Below, piece by piece: positions 13,236 to 62,000 of a stretch of DNA of 64,000 bases. The position numbers and the translations under genes were made by a program. Numbering within the stretch: position 1 is the first letter of the stretch; the number at the start of each line of letters is the position of its first letter. This DNA is from Mytilus edulis (lineage: Eukaryota). Under the pieces are notes generated by a model. That model made no database searches. It was not told where the DNA came from and worked only from the letters and a program-made list of their open reading frames with translations. The stretch spans positions 66,464,001-66,528,000 of the forward strand of contig NC_092344.1 of NCBI RefSeq assembly GCF_963676685.1, given 5' to 3'.

Positions 13236-15894
13236 TAAAGTACCATCCTCAATTAGATCAGATCATACTTTATTGTCTTTCTATATTTAGATTTACTGCA
13301 TGTCTCCTAAAATAGTTTCTGTCATTGCTTAATAATGTGACAAGATGAAGGCTTGTCTAAGTGTAACATGTCCCAAAATAGATATTTTTGTAGTAAATGC
13401 AATCTTAATTTCATGTTAAGTTTTAAATGATACATTGGTTAATCATTCAAACTTACAATTTACTTTCTTTTAAGTACAGGATGACCGCGGAATGATGATT
13501 TAAAGAACTGAATTAGTATTAATTTGAGATACACTTGTATTTATATATATGTCCCGGATATTAATTATATTCATTTGCAAATTAGAGTTTGAAATCTTAT
13601 ACGTAAGATAGAAAAAATGTTAAGCAATTTGTCCAAGTATGAAAACCTTAAAGCTTCCAAAAATAGATTTCATTTAAAATTTTAAAAAGAAAAATTTATG
13701 TCAAGTGTGGTCCGTTTACATTTAAACATTATTAATATAAGAAAGTAAATGATAAGATCGTATTATATGCATTGAAATCAATAAAAATTGAAAAAATTCT
13801 AAAGTTATTCTAAGGAAATCAGCAGTATATGAATGGTAGTCGAGTCTGTGTAAACACAATGTGTTTTCTAATAATCCATAAGCTAACATGAATATTGTCT
13901 GAGCACTTCCGTTGAATTCAGGCCCAATATTTACATAGTATAAGTCTCATTACTACGTTTAAAACTTCCACTGTTCATGTTTCGCAATTCTAATTTTAGC
14001 GTTGCTATAAAAAGATCATTATCTAAACATGGGAATACTTATATTTAAAAATCAGTCAGTTGTTATTCGTAATGACACCAACGGTTTGACTAACAATTGA
14101 GACATTTCAACAAAGTTTACAAGTAGAATTGTCTTGTGACATGAAGATAAGACACTTAGGGTGTAATGCAGTTGACAAGTGTTTGTAGAGTGTCTGACTA
14201 TTTTACTTTTATGCATGTTGTTTTGTTGATCGTTAAGGGGTCAGGTTACCTAAATCTCTAGTGGGATTGTGTTCTTTCTACTTTCTCAGGAATTGAACTG
14301 ATTGGACTTTGCATTTTGCTATAGGGATAATTACTCGAAAAGTCCAGTTTGAAATAATGTTACAGTCTAAAAGTTACTATACAAAACGTTCAAAAAAATA
14401 TACTTAACTCCAAGGTTAATTCAAAACAAAATCAAACATTATCAACCAACAAAAGTATTGTAGGATATGAAACTGCTTTTAATCCGTTGCATGATTTTAG
14501 TTTATATTCATACATATCCTATCACACACTATGGGATGTATGGTTGCATGGGTGTTATATAATAACAAAAACTTACTATCTTTACTATTTTCATCTTGTT
14601 TGTTTTTCTTTAATTTTGAAATAATGTATTTAGGTTTTTGCAAGGTATGAAATTTTATTGATAAAAAGTTTCTTAGCAGAAAATTGATAAGTTTTACATT
14701 CTTGACCAACTTATTTGTACTTACATAATGGTTTATGAAATCACAAAAGATGTTAAATAAGTTTTCTGATCAAATAAATAAAAGATGAAAGAAATCCAGC
14801 GACTATATGAGACTGCATTCCAAAAAAAAAGAAATAGTAGACAAATTATAAAATTTAAAATCATATCAATTTATATATATTTTAATGGAACTTTTCACCA
14901 AGTAGTATTTCACATCAACTTAATAAAAACTTCAAGGATTATAGAATATATTACACTGATCAAAAGTCTAGATAAACTATAAAGTACTTAATCATGATTG
15001 TATCGGTTGGAAATGTTAAAATAAACTGTTTTAGAACCAGTGTGATAGGGTATAAAAAATGAAAAAAAAAAGCTGAAAATTTAAAAATGTTGACACAAGT
15101 AGTTATTGGGTTATCATTCAAATTCAGCCATATCTTTTCCAAATCAGTGTCTGTGGTGATCTTAACATAAACTGTAATATGAGTGTAACTACCAAGATCT
15201 AACAGAACCTTGCATTGTAAGATATTTTAAAAATTTTGAATGTTGAGAAAGTTACTTTACTGAAGGGCCCATGTTGTATTTATTGAAAGACGTCTCTGAG
15301 AGTTAAGTGATACTGATTTGTATAAAAGAACTTGGCATTGAATGATATGTTATGATTAGATTGGTAGAGAATACTTCTAAATGAAAGGTTTATTGAAAGA
15401 TCTAATTTCCCTGACAGTGGCAGTTCATGTAGTAAACTTTGATATTTTTTTTAATGATGTTGAATTTTATCAATAGTGTCTTTTCTGTATTAAACTTCTA
15501 CAACTTCTTCTTGGCATTGGACAAGATGTTGATAATTTAAATCTTGTTTTATAAGTTATTTTCATGTATTAATTGGTCATCAGTTTATTTTTAGTGTTGT
15601 GCTTGTGACTGGTTGCTATTTCATTGATGTACTCAGTGCTTAAAAGTGTACCAGTGAACAGCAAGAATTTGGTTCACCATAAAATGACTCTTCATGAGCC
15701 TCACTGTAGTTCACCTTTCTCATTATGCATGATGATCCAAAGCATTATGTACTTTTCATCTTAAATTTGTCAAAATTTAGTAGCCTGGAATACATAAATT
15801 GTCATATAAACAAATAAAAATAGGTATGTGACAAACACAAAAAAAAAACAACATTATATATGGAACGCCAACACTGTCTTATTATGCCCATTTT

Positions 15895-16485
15895 TCATTA
15901 TATGTTGTGCATTTACCTTTATATGATGTGCATTTACCTTTATATGATGTGCATTTACCTTTATATGATGTGCATTTACCTTTATATGATGTGCACTTGT
16001 CATCATATGATGTGCAAATATCCTTATATGATGTGCAAACATCATTATATGATGTGCAAACATCATTATATGATGTGCAAACATACTTATATGATGCGCA
16101 TATATACTTATATGATGTGCAAATATACTTATATGATGTGCAAATGTACTTATATGATGTGCAAACATTCTTATGTGATGTGAAAATATGCTTATATTAT
16201 GTTGTAAGATCCTTATATGATGTGCAAATATAGTTATATTATGTTGAAAGATCCTTATATGATGTGCAAATATACATATATGCTGTGCAAATATACTTAT
16301 ATGCTGTGCAAATATACTTATATGATGTGTACATATCATTATATGATGTGCAGTTTCCCTTATATTACGTGCAAACATCTTTATATGATGTGGTTGTGTC
16401 ATTATATTATGTGCTTGTAATCTTATATTATGTGGTTAGGTTTACTTCATTATATGATGTCGAAACGTCATTATATGATGTGCTT
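15895..16485 (+). repeat. 21-bp minisatellite (ttatatgatgtgcaaatatac) inside the left TIR
   Basis: Roughly 28 tandem units; accounts for the repetitive ORFs in several frames. Confidence 0.95.
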
Positions 16486-17324
16486 TCATCGTCGTTATGG
16501 TCAATGAACATGATTACGATTAGAATGATTACTGTCTACGTCATAACTGATTCCGATCTGCGTCTGCGGAGTAACCGTTATTACTAATTAGGATCAAATC
16601 TGTTGCTACCGTTTGGAAAATGGTTGAGACTTGAGATAAACCTTAGCATGTTAGTACCTCGTTTTAAGATGCAAAAAAATCACATCTGATATTGTTGGAA
16701 AATTGTAAAAAATATATATGAATTGCAAAGTTTTGTTTAAATCGCAAATCTTTAATAATAAACATACGGAGTCTTCAATACGGTTAAGGTTATTGAATTG
16801 AAGAAATAATTCTTTTATGTCATGCTATATGATCGTTTTAACGAGGGAAAGCATTATATTTGTCAATTTCGGTATACCTAACGTTAGCAATTTTTCTATA
16901 AGAAGATAATACACGAAGTTTAGTATTTTCATTTATGTAAATATTGCCTTTCTGATCATGGTTAGCTGTTCGAGTTTCTCTTTATATATTCTCAAGATAG
17001 ACACAAACAATTGGGAATAAATCGGACTCTGATAGAGTAATGGCTCATATAAGGAACCGGTCATTTGTAACAAAAAAAAGAGGGGATAGGAAAAGTGGCA
17101 TTCAATTTTATATAGTTATAAATTTGCCGCGGTATAATGTTATGGCGAATTCTTCGTCAACCGTAGGCATCAATCTTTACGCCTCGTTTCGCTCATCTGA
17201 ATTGTTAAAACCTGAAAATTTAGTTTCAACAATTTCTTCTAGCAGAGAATTTTTCATCTGATGCTATTATTGAATGAAGGTGTGGTAAATATTAATGAAA
17301 CCACAAACGGCAAATCCAAACTAA

Positions 17325-17698
17325 TATAAAAAAGAAGATGTGATATGATTGCCAATGAGACAACTATCCACAAAAGACCAAAATGACACAAACATTAACA
17401 ACTATAGGTCATCGTACGGCCTTCAACAATGAGCAAAGCCCATACCGCATAGTCAGCTATAAAAGGCCCCGATAAGAAAATGTAAAACAATTGAAACGAG
17501 AAAACTAACGGCCTTATTTATGTAAAAAAAAAATGAACGAAAAACAAATATGTAACACAAAAACAAACGACAACCACTGAATCACAGGCTCCTGACTTGG
17601 GACAGACACATACATAAATAATGTGGCGGGGTAAAACATGTTAGCGGGATCCCCCCCCCCCCCTAACCTGGAAAGTGGTATAACAGTGCAACATAAGA
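17325..17698 (-). mobile_element. Interspersed repeat family A copy with a degenerate twister motif (17573-17679)
   Basis: Same sequence recurs at ~10845-11010, 19382-19542, ~21525-21640 and ~22060-22200. Carries ctgtcccaagtcagga and ccccgc, but UAA is changed to UUA and GAGGG is lost in a poly-G run. Confidence 0.8.
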
Positions 17699-18889: not shown

Positions 18890-19180
18890 TAAAATTGAGA
18901 ATGGAAATGGGGAATGTGTCAAAGAGACAACAACCCGACCAAATAAAAAAACAACAGCAGAAGGTCACCAACAGGTCTTCAATGTAGCGAGAAATTCCCG
19001 CACCCGGAGGCGTCCTTCAGCTGGCCCCTAAACAAATATATACTAGTTCAGTGATAATTTACGCCATACTAATTTCCAAATTGTACACAAGAAACTAAAA
19101 TTAAAATAATACAAGACTAACAAAGGCCAGAGGCTCCTGACTTGGGACAGGCGCAAAAATGCGGCGGGGTTAAACATGTT
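18890..19180 (-). mobile_element. Family B copy, 5'-truncated within the twister motif
   Basis: Reverse complement of ~57156-57443; ends at the aacatgtt palindrome. Confidence 0.85.
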
Positions 19181-22343: not shown

Positions 22344-22459
22344 AGCGATAGACACATATTTGAGCCGGGTTAATAATTTACAGAAGCAGATCGGAATCAG
22401 TTATGACGTAGACAGTAATCATTCTAATCGTAATCATGTTCATTGACCATAACGACGAT

Positions 22460-23050
22460 GAAAGCACATCATATAATGACGTTTCGACATCATATAATGA
22501 AGTAAACCTAACCACATAATATAAGATTACAAGCACATAATATAATGACACAACCACATCATATAAAGATGTTTGCACGTAATATAAGGGAAACTGCACA
22601 TCATATAAGGATATGTACACACCATATAAGGATCTTTGCACATCATATAAGTATATTTGCACATCATATAAGGATCTTTGCACATAATATAAGTACATTT
22701 GCACATCATGTAATAATGTTTGCACATCATATAAGAATGTTTGCACATCATATAAGAATGTTTGCACATCATATAAGTATATTTGCACATCATATAAGTA
22801 TATTTGCACATCATATGAGTATGTATGCACATCATATAAGTATGTTTGCACATACTATAATGATGTTTGCACACCATATAAGGATATTTGCACATCATAT
22901 AAGGATATTTGCACATCATATAAAGGTGTTTGCACATCATATAATGACAAGTGCACATAATATAATGACAAGTGCACATCATAAAAAGGTAAAAACACAG
23001 CATATAAAGGTAAATGCACATCATATAAAGGTAAATGCACATCATATAAG
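22460..23050 (-). repeat. 21-bp minisatellite inside the right TIR (inverted copy)
   Basis: Tandem tgcacatcatataag units, the reverse complement of the left array. Confidence 0.95.
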
Positions 23051-24557
23051 GAAAATGGTCATAACAAGACAGTGTTGGCGTTCCATAATTATAAACAATA
23101 TTTCATTTAAAAAGACAAATTGTAAATAATAAGTATTTGTCTTTGATAGGGGTTAATAGTTGTCTGGTTCATTTTTCTACTCATGCCTACTCATTTAAAC
23201 CTGAACAACATTAGGACAATACCAGTATAAGATTCCTTATTGGCCTGATCAGGAAGTAAACACAAGAATCACTAAGAATTGTCACTAAATGACAGATGTT
23301 TCGCTAAGAAACTTGTCTTATATATATAATGTCACATGAAGAGAGAGAGACTTAATGAGATTGGACGACAGCTGTTTTATCACTTCCTTACTGAAGTCCA
23401 TGTTTCTTTTGTAAACAATTCTGTTGCTCAGCTGTTACTAAACTCTGATGCTGTTTTTGAATACAGAAAAGTACCTGGGTATAATGATTATTAGCTTCCC
23501 TTTGATGTTTGTAGTTTATTTTCGTTGATGACCTTTTAAACTCTGATAAAATATTCACTTTCTGTAAAAAAAAAAGATAATGGCTTGTATTTTAATATGG
23601 AAATTGGATGATTTTCAAAATACATACCTGTCAAATATTGATATGTAGGGAGTTAATAGGTATATATGTAAGTAAAATAACACTAGAGAATGGAATGTTG
23701 TAAAAGTACATTTATCTATGTTATCGTCTCAGATTGAAATTTTTGTGTTTAAAGTTGAATAAAATCTGGTTACCCTATGATATAAAGATTATTGACATAT
23801 TCTCAATTCAGAAAGCCCAATTTACAAATATATTTGTTTATTGAACTTAAAAAGTCTTATATTGGAATTTTAATTTTATCTTGATAAAAAGGTTTTGGCA
23901 TAACATAGTTCTTATGTGTACATTTAACTGTCACTTTCATGATTAACCCTTTACTAGTTTCCAACGTCCCCTACTCTACTAAAAAATACCTAAATAACTC
24001 GCACTTTCATGAGTAACCCTTTTCAAAATGTTCCCTGAACCCCCACCCCACCCTATCTGACCCTAAATTGATTTATTCTAATGGTTCCACAGTAGGGGAG
24101 TTCTTACATCAATAATTTCTGTACCATTCTGACATCCTTTAATTCTAAAATACAGTGCATGTGTGATTCTGATAACCACAAAAATATAAATTTAACATTT
24201 TTGCTAAATTTATGAGCCAACTGATGTTTGTTATTCTTGACAATCATCCCATTTTAAACTGAACTTGAATTATTTAAAGAAGAATAAATTGAGAAACAAC
24301 AGAGAAAAGATTAAAGATTAAATCTACCATTAGATTTTGGCACAAATGCAAAAGTTATTCTCTTCTATCCAAACGCTTCTTATCATTATACAAAATAAAC
24401 AAGTCATATTGATACAATTATGTGTCTAACAGTCAATCACAGATAGTCTAAACAGTACTGTCCCCCATCAATACATTGGGTTATTAATAGATTCTCTTGC
24501 ATATGCAAAACAGTTGTTTTTCATTCATATGTTCTTGTTTTGACTTAAATGTACTTA

Positions 24558-33314: not shown

Positions 33315-34072
33315 GTCACCTTTAGTCGAAAGTTTCAATAATAGAGATCACCCTAATATAATCTAAAGTTTCAGTAATCAAGATCAACATGAGTTCAGAG
33401 TTTAAGTAATAGAGATCACCCTCAGTCCAAAGTTTAAGTAATAGAGATCACCCTCATTCCAAAGTTTAAGTAATAGAGATCACCCTCAGTCCAAAGTTTA
33501 AGTAATAGAGATCACCCTCAGTCCAAAGTTTAAGTAATAGAGATCACCCTCAGTCCAAAGTTTAAGTAATAGAGATCACCCTCAGTCCAAAGTTTAAGTA
33601 ATAGAGATCACCCTCAGTCCAAAGTTTCAGTAATAGAGATCACCCTCAGTCCAAAGTTTCAGTAATAGAGATCACCTTTTAAGTCCAAAGTTTCAGTAAT
33701 AGAGATCACCTTTTAAGTCCAAAGTTTCAGTAATAGAGATCACCCTCAGTCCAAAGTTTCAGTAATAGAGATCACCTTTTAAGTCCAAAGTTTCAGGAAT
33801 AGAGATCACCCTCAGTCCAAAGTTTCAGTAATAGAGATCACCCTCAGTCCAAAGTTTAAGTAATAGAGATCACCCTCAGTCCAAAGTTTAAGTAATAGAG
33901 ATCACCCTCAGTCCAAAGTTTAAGTAATAGAGATCACCCTCAGTCCAAAGTTTCAGTAATAGAGATCACCCTCAGTCCAAAGTTTAAGTAATAGAGATCA
34001 CCCTCAGTCCAAAGTTTAAGTAATAGAGATCACCTTTTAAGTCCAAAGTTTCAGGAATAGAGATCACCTTTA
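33315..34072. repeat. 32-bp minisatellite (agtccaaagtttaagtaatagagatcaccctc), about 23 units with 34-bp variants
   Basis: Highly homogeneous tandem array with degenerate units at the left edge. Confidence 0.95.
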
Positions 34073-43800: not shown

Positions 43801-46800
43801 TCAAATGACCTTGAGAAGATAAATATGGATTAATGCCATTTTAACTTAAAGACATAATGATACCTTCAGACATAATCATTGAAACATTAGAGTTTTCTAT
43901 CTTATTTATCAAATACAAGTATTGATTAAAGGAGGGATTTCAAACTGGAATTTTGTTCATTGCCTTAATCTTTTTTCAGGGGGAAATGTTCAAATTGATT
44001 GATATTTTCCTACTGGGAATTCTGGGATTAAAATCTAGATGTTGACAAAAGAATCTATTACAAAAGAGGACAGATATTTGAAATTTAGATTAGTTCTTAC
44101 TATATTGATGGGTTGTAATTGGAAATACTGTGCTTTCAGAGTTGTGTAAGATTATATCTTTATCGTATTTGGGTTTTTAATTAAGATTTTTTTAAAAGTT
44201 GATTGGATATAAGCAAGATTTTGTCTGTTAACACAGCCAGAGAGATATAAAAACATTAATGTTTTATGTCTGATACAAGTCACAAAGGCTTAGACTGTTT
44301 TCTGCTTTATACTTTTAGCATATTAGTTCTGTGTCATGGATTTTTCAAAAGGGGTATACTATAGGAGAGTAAAAAGGATATGAAATTGGTATTCATTGCC
44401 CTTCCAGTGCACCTGAAATCACCTCCAGTTTTGGTGGGTTTTGTTTTGTTCATGTTGTATAAAAATGAATGAAACTTGTCAGAAGCTTAATTTTTTAGGG
44501 TAAGCCCTTTTCGAGACACTTTTCTGCTCCTCTCTAGATGTAGCCAGACGGATTTGTACTTCCCAATTTTGATTTGTTTAGTATTGGTAATTAAAGGCAT
44601 TTACACCATTTAGTTTAATGGTTGGGACATCAAGAGCAGGGAATTTGTTCTTAAGACATGAAAATAATTAACTTATACTTTGATATTGGCTTTGTTTACT
44701 AATAGAAGTGTTGAAAGTCATCATACTTAAGTTTGTGATGTACTCTTTACTACTGTAATATTACATTGACAGAAATAAAAATAGAAGAAGTGGTGTGATT
44801 ACTTTAGAACAAAAGAAAAAAGTCAAATCACAAAAATACTGAACTTAAAGGTAAATCAATTCGGAAAGTCCATGATCACATGGCAAAATCAAATAACAAA
44901 ACGCATCGAAAATGAATGGACAAGAACTGTCATATTCCTGACTTGGTACAGGCATTTTCAAATGTAGAAAATGGTGGATTAAACCTGGTTTTATAGTGCT
45001 AACTAACCCTCTCACTTTGAAAACATGTTTCCTAATACCTAATTTGTTGACTTTACAGAAATAACTTGTGGGGGAGATTGAAAATGTAAAATCCATGCTC
45101 ATTTTCGTCAAGCATTATCTCAATTAGAGAAGTTATTTTCAGTTCTTTCTTAATGTGAATCATTGAAAAAAAACATTGTATAAATGATGTAACATATTTA
45201 TTTATTTTGAAAGTTTGGAATGCATCATTAAGTTTCACACAGTTCTCTTTTACTCTCTGTTTCCTAATGCACTTGTAGAAATATAGTATCTAGTATTTCT
45301 GCTTATAATAGAGACAAGTATATGTATTGTAGAGGTTTTTCCTTGTAAATGTAATACATGTATTATACATAACCTGTGACTTTCTAGGTTAAATATTGAT
45401 ATCTTACTAGTAAGTTGCTTGTAACCTAGTCCTTACCACAGCTGTTGAAAAGCCAATTTAATTCATTCATCCATGCTTTGTGGAACAAGTACTTCTCGTT
45501 GAACTTATTACTGTCAAAAGGAGTGAGACACCTAATGAAACAAGAACTTGTCATGGTTTAGTAAGCACTGCTGATTAAATTCCATAAAACAATGGGGACA
45601 TTGAACTAGGGTGTATATGAAGGAGTATACAATGACAAGTGGGGTTAATCTTGACAATTTATATTCTGATTGTAGTAATCCCTGGTAACTGATATTATGA
45701 ATATTGGGTCTGTTGATTTGTAATGTATATAAGTCGGGAAAGTCAATAGATATGAGAAAAATTGTTTGAAAATTTTCAGAATAGATTTTTTTATCAGATT
45801 ATGATGACTTATAATTTTTTTTAAAGATTTTAAGAATAGAATATTTAGTCAGATGTATATATATGATTAATTTTTTTACTAAGTGACATAGTATTTTTTA
45901 ATAAGAATTTACGCAATGTCCATGTTAGTGCTCTTAGGAAGTCATAAGACATTAGAAAATTTAAACTGACTTAGGATTTTTAAGTTGTCCGTGTTTATTG
46001 TCTCTGAATATAAAAAAAAAACATGCAAAAAATTATTTGAGAAATTTTTAACAATAGAATTTTTATTTATATAATACGAGATATGATTAATTTTTGACAG
46101 AGTGACACAAGATATTTAAGAAGGTATAATGTAGTGTCCATGCTTATTCTCTCAGGAAGTGATATGCAAATTAAAATTTATTTTAGAATTTTTAAATAAT
46201 TAATTTTTTTGTCATAAATGATTAATTTTGGACAAAGTGACAAGATTTTTAAAATTAGAACTTATTTATTCTCGTAGGAAGTTGATAGACATGCAAAAAT
46301 GTAGTCAAAGAAATTTCTTAGAGTATTTTTTTTTTTATTATCGGATATGATTAATTTTTGACAAAGTGACATAGGATTGTAAAGTAGTTATACAGTGTTG
46401 GTGTTGATTCTCTTGTGGTTCTTAGACATTTTAAGCTGACAAAGCCTGTTGCCATATGATTTATTTACATATGATGCATGTTGCACATTATATGCAATCA
46501 GTATGCAGGTTTTGGGTTAGATAATCTAGTTTGCTTGGAGAGAGAAGCTGTTATGTGACAGTGGGTGTGTTTGCTAGTGTCAGTGATAACATCAACTATT
46601 TTGGTATGACAATATGACTGTGTGTCATAGTCTAGTAACAGCAACAACATGGAGATTAAGAATAACATTGCATAATTTAGGGAATTACTGACCGTTCAAG
46701 GGCTGTATAGCCAGTCAAGGTCGTTAAAAACTTAAAATCAAAAAAAGTAATATTGGGCAAAGAATACAGGATACATTGGAATATACATTTTTGGCAAAGG

Positions 46801-56000: not shown

Positions 56001-59000
56001 AAAATGACTTTAGATGCAGGTTGCATTAATTTAGATAGGAATATTAAAATTTAATGGAAAAAAATATTAAAAATAGAAAATAGGTTTTTCTAGATAATTT
56101 TTTTCTTTTATTTAAGAAACATGATAATCTTTGACATTTTATGACATTAAATCTTTTGAAAAAACCTAGTCAAAAGATAAAAATTAATATTGAAATCAAA
56201 TATATTGTAGGATGATATAAAAAAAAATGTAAGACATGTATGAAGATATGTGGAAACCTGAGAAGCAGAACTAATCATGTTTTTGACATATATGCTAATT
56301 CTTAAGTGATTTATGAAATTTTAATAATCGAACAATCTGGTTAATCTGGATTCTGAATTCAACTTTCGAAACTGTCTTTACATGTATCGTAATTTCCAAA
56401 GCTTAATGAGAATAATCACTCAGACTGCTAAAAAAACAAAAAAATGAATCTTTCCCTAGATAGTTGGTCTAGACTTTGGTACATAAATGAATATATTCAT
56501 TATTAGGTGTTTTAAGCTATTAACAAGTAACTCTGTCCCACAGCAATGAGTTGTCACCTATTTATTGTTCTATTAGTGTAAGTGGTGGTTTGGGAATTAC
56601 TGTTTATAACACTTTTTTGCGGAAATTTGACTTTATTATTCTTTCCACTTTCCTTATGCCTTCCCTTGTCTGGCTTCCAATTTGCACTTCTGGATTCAAT
56701 TGCCGCAAATTTGGGAAATGTTATGTATAATAATGAATAAAGAATCTATTATATATTTGGTGAACTTGTTTGTCTGTCTGTTATAAAAGTGCTTCTCTTT
56801 GAATATAGACATTATTTCTAAAAAAACAGTTGTTGGCATGACACGGGTTATGTTCTTCTCATATATTTTATGATAGTATGATACTAAACCCCTAACGGGA
56901 GGGATTGTACCTGATATTCATATGATGAAGACATAATCTTTCAATCAGTTTAATTGAGATCTGGAGCTGGCATGTCAGTTAACTGCTAGTAGTCTTTTGT
57001 TATTTATGTATTATTGTCATTTTATTTATTTTCTTTTGTTACATCTTTTGACATCAGACTCGGACTTCTCTTGAACTGAATTTTAATGTGCGTATTGTTA
57101 TTGTTTTACTTTTCTACATTGGCTAGAGGTATAGGGGGAGGGTTGAGATCTCATAAACATGTTTAACCCCGCCGCAATTTTGCGCCTGTCCCAAGTCAGG
57201 AGCCTCTGGCCTTTGTTAGTCTTGTATGATTTTAAATTTTAGTTTCTTGTGTATAATTCGGAGTTTAGTATGACGTCCATTATCACTGTACTATTATGCA
57301 TATTTTAGGGGCCAGCTGAAGGACACCTACGGGTGCGGGAATTCTCGCTACATTGAAGACCCATTGGTTGCCTTCGGCTGTTGTTTGCTCTATGGTCGGG
57401 TGGTTGTCGCTTTGACATATTCACCATTTCCTTTCTCAATTTTATTTTAGCATGCTATGAAAGTACCTGCACATATGAAATTGCTCCTAACTTTCACAGA
57501 ACGAGAAACATTGATAAAGATCATCCCCTTAATCTCCATTTGGATTGTTTGATAGGGGAGAAGTAAAAGTGCAATCAAAGCCTCAATTTAAATGTACAGT
57601 TTATTGATAGGGACCTATTGCTATTATTTACTGTTATAGTAAATCACAAATAAGGGCTTCACTAAAATAGGCCCCTAAAATGCACAGTATATTGTTAAGG
57701 TGTATGGTAAACCACTTAGATTGTTGACTCTATGGAAAATGACAGTACAAGCCTCTAACTAAATGTACAATATAATGCTAGGGTGCTTTGTAAATTGCTT
57801 CTAGAGTTGGGCTAGAGTTTATCTAAGTTGGATTGCAATTGAGAGGAATATCTGACGTAACAGTTCTGATGTATGAGGATACACAAATTTAAAAAAGTAG
57901 TAAAAATTATGAATTTAAAAAAAACTCAAAACCTCTAAACATCTTAAGTGCAAAACAGATAGTAAAAATAGAGAATTATTACTGATACTTGTAATTTTAT
58001 ACTGATAAGAAAATAATGATAGGTCTGTGAAGCAGTTATATACATCTTCTCAAGAGCAATTTAAAGATTTTTACAGGCTGTCCATCAATCATACAGACTT
58101 TAAAATGATACTTTCATTATAATCAATAGGAACCATAGACAAAACATATCACTAATGTAGTTATCATAATAGACACAGGCTTTTTTTTTATTTTATAGAT
58201 AAACCCGGAAAACAGTAAAAATAATATTTTTCCAAATGATGTGGTAACGATTTAATCAAAAACAGACATTAGTTATTAGTGTATATGTTGAAATTTGTTA
58301 TTTAATCGAGCTGGGATACTAACCAGACTCTCTGTAAATGTTTCCACAGAAAATTGGTTTGTAAGGTGATGCCCATGATAATGTTTTTTACATATATCAA
58401 TGTTGGTATAATAGATCCAGCTCTGAGCATAGTGATTTAACACAAATCTATAGGAATTGACCTGGTTTTGTCCAGAATATGTGTGGTGATATATTTGCCA
58501 CTGTACATATAAATTACAATGTTTTAATCAGATCCTTAGAATCATGCAAAAGTTTATCTCATAGGGTGTATGCAAAGAGGCCCCTATGCATTAATTTAGG
58601 CCCCATCCTTTCAATTTATAATTTCCATTTAGCTGTGTATCAGTCCTCATCCTTCAATAGTTCATCTGAGACTCTGCATCAAAAATTTCTAGATAAAACA
58701 CAGTGTTGACAACAAGAAATTACAATGCAAACTTTTATTTTGGTCTTATTTGTTTGAAATAAAATTTAAAAGAATGGACAAAAATGTTTTCAACTTAAAT
58801 TTATCTGTTCATGCTTACATAACTAAAAAGGCTGCTAAAACAATTATGATACACCTACATAATGTTGAAACAGGTAACTCCAAATTTTGATTTAGGTGGA
58901 TATTGATCGATAATTACAGAGGGCGGACAAGATTCTAATTAAGTATGAGTGATTGGTGTTTGCTGAATGACAATTGTCCAAATTAGAAATTAAAGTAATA

Positions 59001-62000
59001 ACATGGTTTACAAAATAAATATACATCTTATATGTAAAATTTTCAAAAAATCATGTTTTTTCTCTCTTCAGATGTTACAAGTGTAGTCTGAGCAAGTTCA
59101 ACTGTACATGGTGTATCAAGAACCATATGTGTACATATTATCCACTTCAGGATTGCAGTGAGACAGATGAATTTGTAGCAGCTTCGAATGTAAGTTGACG
59201 TCTGCCACCTAAAAGAGTGGGAAATCTTTAAAATGTATATTCTAATTTTAAGTCAAATCTTAAGTAGATTGAATACAATTGAAGGATTTATCTTAAACAG
59301 GAAAGTTGCTAATAGATCTGCAAAGATCTCTCAATGATACTAGACAATGAATCAGTATTCAAAAACTTTGCATTAAAGATCAGTCTAAAGACCAAGAGGG
59401 ATTTCATTAAAGCAATGTCCTTGATTTTTTTCTTCTATAAAGAGCGTTAATTATTTTAACTATTTGAAATTATCAATTGTCTGTCAACCTACGACTTTCT
59501 GTGTAAAAAGTAAAATAACAAAAATATAGAACTCCAAGGGAGATTCTAATGGTGAAATCAAAAGCTCAAACACATCAAAGGAATGGAAAACAACCGTCAT
59601 ATTCCTGACTTAGTACAGACATTTTCTTATGTAGAAGATAGTGGATTAAACCTGTACTTGAATACCTGGTTTTATAGATAACTTAACCTCAAATTGTCTC
59701 TAATATACATATGCAAAATATTATCGCATATATGTGAAACTGTCTATTGAACAGAAATGCCTTGCATGAATTCTAGATTCTTATTTTCAACAAAGTATAT
59801 ATGTCAATAGTTATCGAAGGTACCAGACTTATAACTTAATATGCCAGATGAGCATTTCATCTACATAAGACTCATCAGTGAGGCTCAGATTAAAATGGTT
59901 AGAAAGCCAAACAAGTTCAAAGTTGAAGAGCATTAAGGATGTACTTAGGTGAGGTTAGGTGAAAATTAATTAAGAAGTTAAAATTGATACTACATTGTAT
60001 AAGCTGGTAGAGCATCAATTAAGGATAAAAATAAGCTAAAAATATTGATAGGTCATGGACCTCCTTTTCGAGATATTTGAGATTTAAAATATGGCAGGAA
60101 AAGGCTGACTCAGACTTTTACCTTATATTTGCATTGGTATTTTTAGGTCTCAAAACAAAAGAAAGAAAATTAAGAATCTTTTAAAATTTTGGTAAATGAC
60201 CTTTCATGAGCTATTAAGTCTTATATGAAAAAATAAATGGGTGTTATGGGGCAAAATATTTTACATTGTATTGTATGGAAAAACACCAAGGAGTCCAAAC
60301 ATTTCACATAAAATCCAAAAACTCACCTAAGTACATCCTTAAGGACCAAAAATTCCAAAAAGTTGTGCCAAATACGGTTATGGAATTCAATGACCGGAAT
60401 AAGTATTTCGATTTTTTGCATACTTTTGCAAACAGTAAATTAAAATAAAATGACCACATGATTCAAATAGACCCTCAAATTTAAGAAATAATAATACGAA
60501 AACATCTTTTAGACTGTTTAATGTCACTGTATATTGAAAATTTCACAAATTGATCAGTACATAACAAGAAGACTTTTATTTTTACAGAGTGGAGGATTTT
60601 TACACAAGCATACAGTAGGACCTGAAAAATGTCCCAGGATAAGTAAAGGACATCCAGAAATACTGGTACCCTCTGGAAATTACAAGAAAGTTGTCCTATT
60701 TGCGCATAACCTCAGGGTAGGTTATTTGATATCATTCATGGCAGATTTTTAACTTGATTGGTTGTTTTCCTTGTATATTTGTAATCAAAAAAAATGTGCA
60801 TGCTTCTGTTTGCGGCCAAACTTGGCACATTATATCAAAATTTGAAAGTTAAAATAGTTTAGTCATTAAAGTTGAAAATGACTAGGAAAACATCTTTTTT
60901 GTGCTATTTTTGAACATCAAATTTCCAGTTTTATATATAGAAAAAATTGTTTTACAAAAATCAGTTTTTCTTCCTATGAAAGTACAAAATGTTTTGCTAT
61001 TAATCTTTGAATATAAACCTTTCAATTATTTCTTTCGTAATAATATGTAGTTAACCTGAAAATTCTTTGATTGCAAATGGTTTAATTTTAGATGTTTCTG
61101 CTGAGATTATACAAGTTTTTGTTTTGATTGTTTTTCAGGCTTTTCAGTACCCTATCTACTGTTACTTCAGCATAGGATCTGGAAGAACTGTTACAGCTCG
61201 TCTAATATCCCACACAGAGTCAGAAAAGATCGTAGAATGTGAAAATACTGAGGTATGGCCCCAGGCTTTTACCATTCGTACAATTTAAATGTCAAACCAG
61301 AAGAAAAACATGTTATTTTACCAAAAACATTTAGCACAAGTTTTTTTAATGTATTATTTTGCACAAAATATTTGTATCATGTTCATATATCTGCATGTAT
61401 ACATCTTAATGAATTGTCATAGAAGTTTCAACATATGGTATCAATATTTACACAAATGTCAAAAAATATTTGGTGCCATACATGACCAAGACAAAATTAC
61501 ATATATAGTTTAAGATTAAAAGAAAATGTACCTTGTTTTGTTGTAGTTGAGTAATGAATTACAAAGATTTTTTTTATAAATTGTGTTTTGTTAATCTTGT
61601 ACTTATTTACTTTCAGTTTTCTTATATTGAGAATACACAAACTTGGAATGTGCCATTCAAAATAACATGGGGTTCCAAAGACTTGAACAAGCCATTTGAT
61701 AATCCTGCAGATGTTCAAGGTAAGTTTATACTAGTAGCGTCAATAGTCGACATGATGTGTACATATAAAGATAAGGAGATGTGGTACCATTGCCATTGTG
61801 ACAATTCTAAATACATAAATATGAATTACAGATCAACTTACACACTTAATCAGAAAAAATCATTGGATTATATAGCTTTTTTTGACGAACACTAATTTTG
61901 ATTGCCGAGAAGCTTAATATTTCATTAACAATAGAACTTGATTATAACGTTCAGCTGAGTTTTACAGAGTTATCTCCCTGTAGTGTTATATACCACCATA

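Follow-up and report, generated by a model that had tools for sequence, protein, structure and literature searches.

Among described ribozymes, those closest to the motif reported here are the type-P5 twisters, which in the accessible parts of PMC5408937 and PMC11662667 have helices P2 and P4, two pseudoknots, an NAA cleavage site, a general-base G, an auxiliary P3 and termini in P5. Bivalves are among the groups for which the accessible part of PMC11662667 gives new type-P1 candidates. Mini-twisters and the T-variants of Perere-3 in S. mansoni (PMC5408937 and PMC8501958, in the sections available) are linked to retroelements and have a missing or imperfect P1; the strings "dimer" and "palindrom" do not occur in the main text of PMC8501958. 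The hammerheads of Penelope-like elements (PLEs) cleave as dimers (PMC6765202, part available), and in the minimal dimer-cleaving forms from PLEs and amphibian retrozymes the ribozyme lies in the pLTR and a palindromic loop takes the place of one helix (PMC6765202 and PMC7229834, same limitation). Naiads, which are also PLEs, are reported without a canonical hammerhead in the available sections of PMC8557442, the searches described there having used hammerhead descriptors.

The motif considered here is situated in a 64,000-nucleotide stretch of Mytilus edulis DNA, referred to below as the window. It shares with type-P5 twisters all of the features named above, but it lacks P1, has a conserved loop of two palindromes (X and Y) and, in positions 56900-57500, gives no match to the Rfam twister model at E values up to 10. 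Missing P1 and linkage to a retroelement are shared with the mini-twisters and T-variants; the T-variants, unlike the motif, are of type P1, occur 5'-terminally in an APE-type non-LTR element and obtain P1 from the target site. As with the PLE hammerheads, the ribozyme is located in a pLTR with a palindromic loop, and in both systems a tandem layout could unite two copies. However, hammerhead dimers use one short palindrome to form a swapped, continuous helix, whereas the motif has two palindromes and belongs to a different ribozyme class; X and Y lack complementarity to one another, so that the geometry must be unlike that of hammerhead dimers, and a swapped duplex of the hammerhead type is ruled out. 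Dimer dependence has been shown for the PLE hammerheads in the papers cited, whereas here it is a proposal. The host element shares with Naiads, including the clam selenoprotein Naiads (PMC8557442, in part), the domain order, CxC and DKA motifs, partial tandems, 5' truncation, a unit of about 4.0 kb and an in-frame UGA accompanied by a SECIS. No report of the motif or of a Naiad twister was found in a literature search that mostly excluded subscription journals. The features of the locus are as follows.

56809-57444, plus strand: 5'-truncated family B Naiad copy, 3' UTR only (blastn against a long RT-bearing copy, 90% identity)
56860-56924, plus strand: SECIS-like element in the same 3' UTR (Rfam SECIS_1 with 30.9 bits against a gathering score of 35, E 1.3e-4)
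57121-57211, plus strand: twister-like ribozyme, opened in P5 and without P1 (segment parse of five families; constrained fold)
57121-57130, plus strand: 5' strand of P5, pairing with 57202-57211 (fold; other sequences pair in families A, D, E and F)
57134-57137, plus strand: 3' strand of P2, GGGG, pairing with CCCC at 57167-57170 (constrained fold; covaries in family F and in clam and jellyfish Naiads)
57138-57142, plus strand: GAGGG, comprising the predicted general-base G57138 and the 3' strand of T1 (57140-42) (layout of the S. mansoni twister table)
57144-57153, plus strand: palindrome X, a predicted intermolecular helix (self-duplex -14.0 kcal/mol, hairpin +1.1)
57155-57164, plus strand: palindrome Y, directly 5' of the predicted cut (self-duplex -8.2 kcal/mol, hairpin +4.2)
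57164-57165, plus strand: predicted scissile bond U/A, with A57165 the predicted general acid (twister layout; RNA-seq depth step)
57171-57184, plus strand: 5' strand of T2 (GC) and P3 hairpin (segment parse, constrained fold)
57185-57200, plus strand: P4 and its loop L4, with the T1 5' strand at 57190-92 and the T2 3' strand at 57195-96 (segment parse, constrained fold)

Sequence comparison identified the host, which the earlier note had left unnamed, as a Naiad Penelope-like retroelement truncated on its 5' side, with the motif in its 3' UTR. The 36 family B copies compared have variable 5' ends and 3' ends that mostly lie about 281 nt past the predicted cut, and longer copies continue into an RT frame; in all 20 of the long RT loci fetched the core lies some 1.5 kb past the RT query start. 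Reading of the ORF for motifs identified an N-terminal GIY-YIG motif (IIYLLT..QYVGET) some 520 aa ahead of the RT query start for five of the seven long copies translated, together with CxC (SCNCS) and DKA (VPADKAANN) motifs, and all three are diagnostic of Naiads according to section 6 of PMC8557442, the paper being accessible in part. A Pfam search with the RT fragment returned a single match, which was unrelated and below threshold. The other Naiad hallmarks of 5' truncation, partial tandems (pLTR) and unit length were also found, the unit being about 4.0 kb against 3.4-4.4 kb; the genome holds 180 precise head-to-tail junctions, with a spacing of 4030-4032 nt in the four pairs listed. At three loci (L185, L195 and L196), short tandem units join the initial 47-65 nt of the 5' UTR to position +203 or +229 of the 3' end, a structure suggestive of template jumps or of circular templates of small size.

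Family B appears to be a selenoprotein Naiad: besides the SECIS-like element, 16 of the 20 long family B loci (L083-L100 among them) have an in-frame TGA 99 codons ahead of the RT query start, and up to three further in-frame TGA codons occur at Cys-like positions near the nuclease. Family F has a weak Rfam SECIS match too. The available sections of PMC8557442 list selenoprotein Naiads for clams and spiders, not for mussels. The other families are linked to related RTs less firmly than B, with sense RT matches within 1.5 kb upstream of 2/14 cores in A, 5/27 in D, 3/24 in E, 2/28 in F and 0/24 unassigned cores, and three of these non-B matches (85-99% identity) may be nested B pieces; family D, for its part, matches the 3' end of the published Naiad_Mgal. 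Copy numbers in the genome were defined by exact-pattern searches, in which the flanks of family B gave 7,400 matches in 1.37 Gb (control 0), family D 4,019 and family E 4,740, and all families together at least 19,000. Four further copies of the motif were located in the window.

17575-17680, minus strand: family A copy, GAGGG and AA both decayed
18890-19180, minus strand: second family B copy, truncated within the loop and retaining most of Y only
44921-45015, minus strand: family D copy, X decayed, matching the published Naiad_Mgal 3' end
59588-59680, minus strand: second, decayed family D copy

Repeats of other kinds are present in the window as well. Inverted arrays of a 21-nt repeat at 15889-16566 and 22381-23055, with arms of 675 nt that are 91% complementary and 5.8 kb apart, are possibly the ends of a foldback or MITE-like element, and a tandem array of 23 copies of a 32-nt unit occupies 33316-34068.

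Segment parsing recovered the twister layout opened in P5 in families A, B, D, E and F, in a segment order that agrees with the S. mansoni twister table in the available part of PMC8501958. P5 is a 10-bp closing stem of family-specific sequence that contains the termini, and P2 and P4 remain paired with changed sequence in the five families (P2 has 3 bp and is imperfect in D and E). P2, P4, P5, T1 and T2 covary across these families and six published consensus ends: T1 is CCC/GGG, ACC/GGT or CCT/AGG here and CAC/GTG in the jellyfish Naiad, with a U-U mismatch in three published consensus ends; T2 is GC/GT, AC/GT, CC/GG or GC/GC; and P4 in other species is CCG/CGG, ACCG/CGGT or CCGG/CCGG. The positions corresponding to A57165, A57166 and G57138 are present and kept across families, the general-acid A and general-base G being assigned these roles in PMC11662667 (part available). 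The twister layout proposed in the earlier note is thus borne out by the parse and by covarying stems and pseudoknots, and we regard the fold as very probably that of a twister. A P1 stem is absent from every family parsed, the strand 3' of GAGGG being unpaired with the strand 5' of AA, as had been claimed. Rfam found no twister at the gathering score in the window and none at E values up to 5 in five loci, nor any hammerhead in the window or in 56900-57500, and these scans detected no ribozyme of another kind either. As P1 is absent and Rfam detects no twister, the motif is filed as a twister-like variant and not as a canonical member of the class.

The position of P1 is occupied by palindromes. 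In the window 22 nt separate GAGGG (57138-42) from AA (57165-66), and the loop at 57143-57164 consists of T, TGAGATCTCA (57144-53), T and AAACATGTTT (57155-64). X and Y are perfect, non-overlapping 10-nt palindromes, and two such palindromes with arms of at least 5 arose in only 13 of 200,000 shuffles of the loop; the two family B palindromes claimed between GAGGG and the cut are confirmed. The claims made for the other families held in part. Family A does have both, GGGATCCC (17646-53) and AACATGTT (17635-42) in its window copy, but in this copy neither GAGGG nor AA is intact, and it is probably dead. In family D, AAACCAGGTTT (44991-81, minus strand) does directly precede AA, but a first palindrome of this family, TAGCGCTA or TAGCTAGCTA, had been missed; it is decayed in the window's copy. 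X is TGGCATGCCA or TGGCTAGCCA in family E and TGGATCCA or TGGTACCA in family F, and the forms seen in B and A are those of the window.

Among the family B matches listed, both palindromes were read as intact in 87 of 100 copies, with the linker base between them the polymorphic site. The X centres GATC, GCGC, CTAG, CATG, TGCA and GTAC are all self-complementary, as is the centre of every family majority form, and within families E and F the centre flips between AT and TA: the 100 family E matches listed comprise 78 CATG, 14 CTAG and 8 others, and the 22 region-retaining family F copies, from 30 loci, comprise 9 GATC, 10 GTAC and 3 others, two of which are single-change intermediates. Loop length is held at 21-24 nt where counted, and in every family seen Y ends at the scissile bond or one base before it. 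Of the 54 published Naiad consensus sequences in the supplement of PMC8557442, the 3' ends of 19 were read, and six (Mgal, Bpla, Mphi, Scon, Mmer and Movir-1), from mussels, clams and a jellyfish, have the twister layout with two palindromes. Palindromy is accordingly kept while the sequence changes, both in the five families here and in these six published ends, and the palindromes are conserved in the family consensus sequences, a point on which the earlier note had let its proposal depend.

Eight of the 19 published ends, from oysters, an ark shell, a pearl oyster and hemichordates, contain a different motif, which lacks a twister core and has one 10-nt palindrome enclosed in a conserved helix; in the part seen of the remaining five, neither motif was found. 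Eight distinct matches to this second 3' UTR motif occur in the fetched loci (L241, minus strand, near 246; L123, L131, L157, L249, L265 and L287). It has a predicted self-duplex of -16.4 kcal/mol and no Rfam match, and is a candidate for a new type of ribozyme or for a dimer signal. The Chlamys-1_cAtm consensus in the same supplement begins with a twister-like stretch just past the would-be AA, and twisters may thus be present in Chlamys elements too.

It could be argued that no dimer forms and that the palindromes serve as a neutral linker or fold into short hairpins within one molecule. Y often has an unpaired central base, so that a triloop hairpin is possible, and in family E the X hairpin is marginally stable at -0.4 kcal/mol. 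However, the predicted X hairpins have energies between -0.4 and +2.5 kcal/mol and are too weak to form, in B with probabilities of 0.0, as the earlier note had anticipated in calling the intramolecular loops too tight, while X self-duplexes reach -11.4 to -17.8 kcal/mol across the families. Self-complementary centres in at least six variants, with AT/TA flips in two families, also speak against hairpins, and we consider this explanation very improbable. Since the X centre is self-complementary although a hairpin loop need not be, intermolecular pairing is the simplest reading, and pairing between RNAs through the palindromes is, to judge from these patterns, probable. The Y self-duplex is weak (-5.3 to -8.2 kcal/mol) with a frequent central mismatch, and in each family between 9 and 51 of 400 shuffles equalled the self-duplex of the loop.

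Whether the RNA is cut was addressed with raw RNA-seq reads of run X24, about 6% of which were read, giving 2,428 aligned reads. First mates on the minus strand had depths of 441, 493 and 627 in bins 57155-59, 57160-64 and 57165-69, while the other read class was flat in the same bins (766, 777 and 781). There is thus a strand-specific rise of about 30% at 57160-65, within 5 nt of the predicted bond, in a single run in which copies are pooled, strand orientation is assumed and a transcription start would look alike. If the stepped class is sense RNA, as in the usual kind of library, about 30% of molecules would start at or just before the bond; some 70% of reads in this class span it. No single read pile-up was listed at the step, and none of the six loose ends listed, out of 116, lies there, a weak argument against the step stemming from a single truncated genomic copy. 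The same read class falls from 477 to 416 at 57139/57140, inside GAGGG and 25 nt before the predicted cut. Three contig runs also aligned to the region, indicating presence only.

In genomic copies, 5' truncations at the site are not enriched (162 matches against 136 and 97 at control sites), and about half of the 100 listed of these 162 are loop mutants. The 5' ends of pLTRs, mapped at 67 of 70 loci, lie at least 90 nt upstream of the site in 35 cases and downstream in 27; five lie between -14 and +7, one of them exactly at 0. Among 20 long loci, one full-length copy (L096, near 3120) has an upstream pLTR that starts exactly at the predicted cut, and L234 is a second copy of this kind. Exact cases (1/67 and L096) were too few to count, and pLTR ends were set aside as evidence of cleavage. 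With so few 5' ends at the site, templates would often be uncut or re-ligated, or tandems would result from template jumps; insertion of the anole PLE in vitro does not need hammerhead cleavage (PMC11167929, part available).

A step of this kind would also be expected if the palindromes acted at the DNA level, as a promoter element or binding site within the pLTR, the rise marking a transcription start and no cleavage taking place. The Y of family B fits the p53 half-site consensus, and we count this in favour of such a role. PLE transcription starts have been located in pLTRs (PMC6765202), and the anole PLE is described without reads starting or ending at the hammerhead site (PMC11167929), both papers being available in part. 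However, the palindrome sequence varies freely among families, both pseudoknots covary, A and G persist at the catalytic positions, and no more than 5 nt separate the step from the predicted bond; this reading is very improbable. Self-cleavage of the motif at 57164/57165, supported by the one RNA-seq run, is likely.

The proposal that dimerisation activates cleavage has found no support so far, P1 being dispensable and the monomer trap lying within the shuffled range. In the accessible parts of the literature, twisters without P1 cleave at almost the wild-type rate (PMC5408937) and P1 imperfections have no effect (PMC11662667); activation would therefore need a trapped monomer or strain in the closed loop. 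The alternative pairing of 57141-46 with 57163-68, suggested previously as sequestering the active site, does exist and prevails in the monomer ensemble computed without pseudoknots (pair probabilities 0.93-1.0), and in the monomer folds the T1 strand is sequestered, the gaps being 1.1 to 5.5 kcal/mol when pseudoknot energy is left out of account. However, the trap is no stronger than in shuffled controls: of 400 shuffled loops, 88 in B, 213 in A, 300 in D2, 326 in D1, 385 in E1 and 28 in F1 reached the gap, which is within the shuffled range in all six family representatives. As 28 to 385 of 400 shuffles equal it, there is no selected monomer trap, and the idea of a conserved trapping helix was dropped. 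Pairing of both X and Y between closed loops also poses a linking problem.

These results leave room for a P1-less twister that cleaves as a monomer and whose palindromes pair RNAs to serve a different function, for instance to keep ends together for re-ligation or circle formation, to bring two templates to the RT, or to allow the template jumps that build pLTRs. Together with the dispensability of P1 and the lack of a selected trap, the 30% step would agree with this, as it probably derives largely from dispersed solitary copies, given that both strands are similarly deep; and since a palindrome is found in the twister-less Naiad motif (8/19 ends), pairing may be a general Naiad need. On the other hand, the palindromes lie exactly at the position of P1, Y ends at the cut or one base short of it, the loop is 21-24 nt long where counted, about 70% of stepped-class reads span the site, and the 3' site stays uncut in reverse-transcribed copies. 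Monomeric cleavage is thus possible, but on the whole doubtful. Activation by dimerisation, for its part, is favoured by the position and fixed length of the loop, the equal lengths of X and Y, the partial cleavage in vivo and the hammerhead precedent, and a dimer may be needed for efficient cleavage, a proposition to which we give somewhat less than an even chance.

The explanation which we find best, and offer tentatively as having almost an even chance of being right, is that a P1-less, twister-like motif of Naiads cleaves itself, that its palindromes pair two copies and that the dimer raises cleavage. The Naiad 3' UTR would hold a twister-like fold in which P1 is replaced by a double-palindrome loop of 21-24 nt, cut at 57164/57165. 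The palindromes would pair with those of a second copy, X with X' and Y with Y', as two helices of about one turn lying side by side while each core folds in cis, and the dimer would raise cleavage by giving the helix support that P1 gives elsewhere. The two copies could meet in a tandem (pLTR) transcript or in abundant element RNA, and the motif would fill the place of the dimer-cleaving hammerhead in other PLEs. A stronger form holds that in Naiads of jellyfish and bivalves alike the twister is obligately dimeric: the two palindromes of each of two copies would form the paired helices that replace P1, cleavage would take place only on an encounter of two element RNAs, and the tens of thousands of solitary copies in host transcripts would remain largely uncut. 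This is somewhat less likely still.

Naiad elements thus contain a genuine and conserved variant of the twister that is unusual in its form; the comparative evidence that it pairs between molecules is good, and the first read-level support for its cleavage, from one RNA-seq run, is new here. The searchable papers describe no natural twister that depends on dimers and has a double-helix interface. If the preferred reading is true, it would explain how Naiads have proliferated without a hammerhead, one branch bearing a twister instead, and it would represent convergence of two unrelated ribozyme classes on palindrome pairing at the same genomic position. With at least 19,000 exact-pattern copies in the mussel genome, such motifs could also cut host transcripts.
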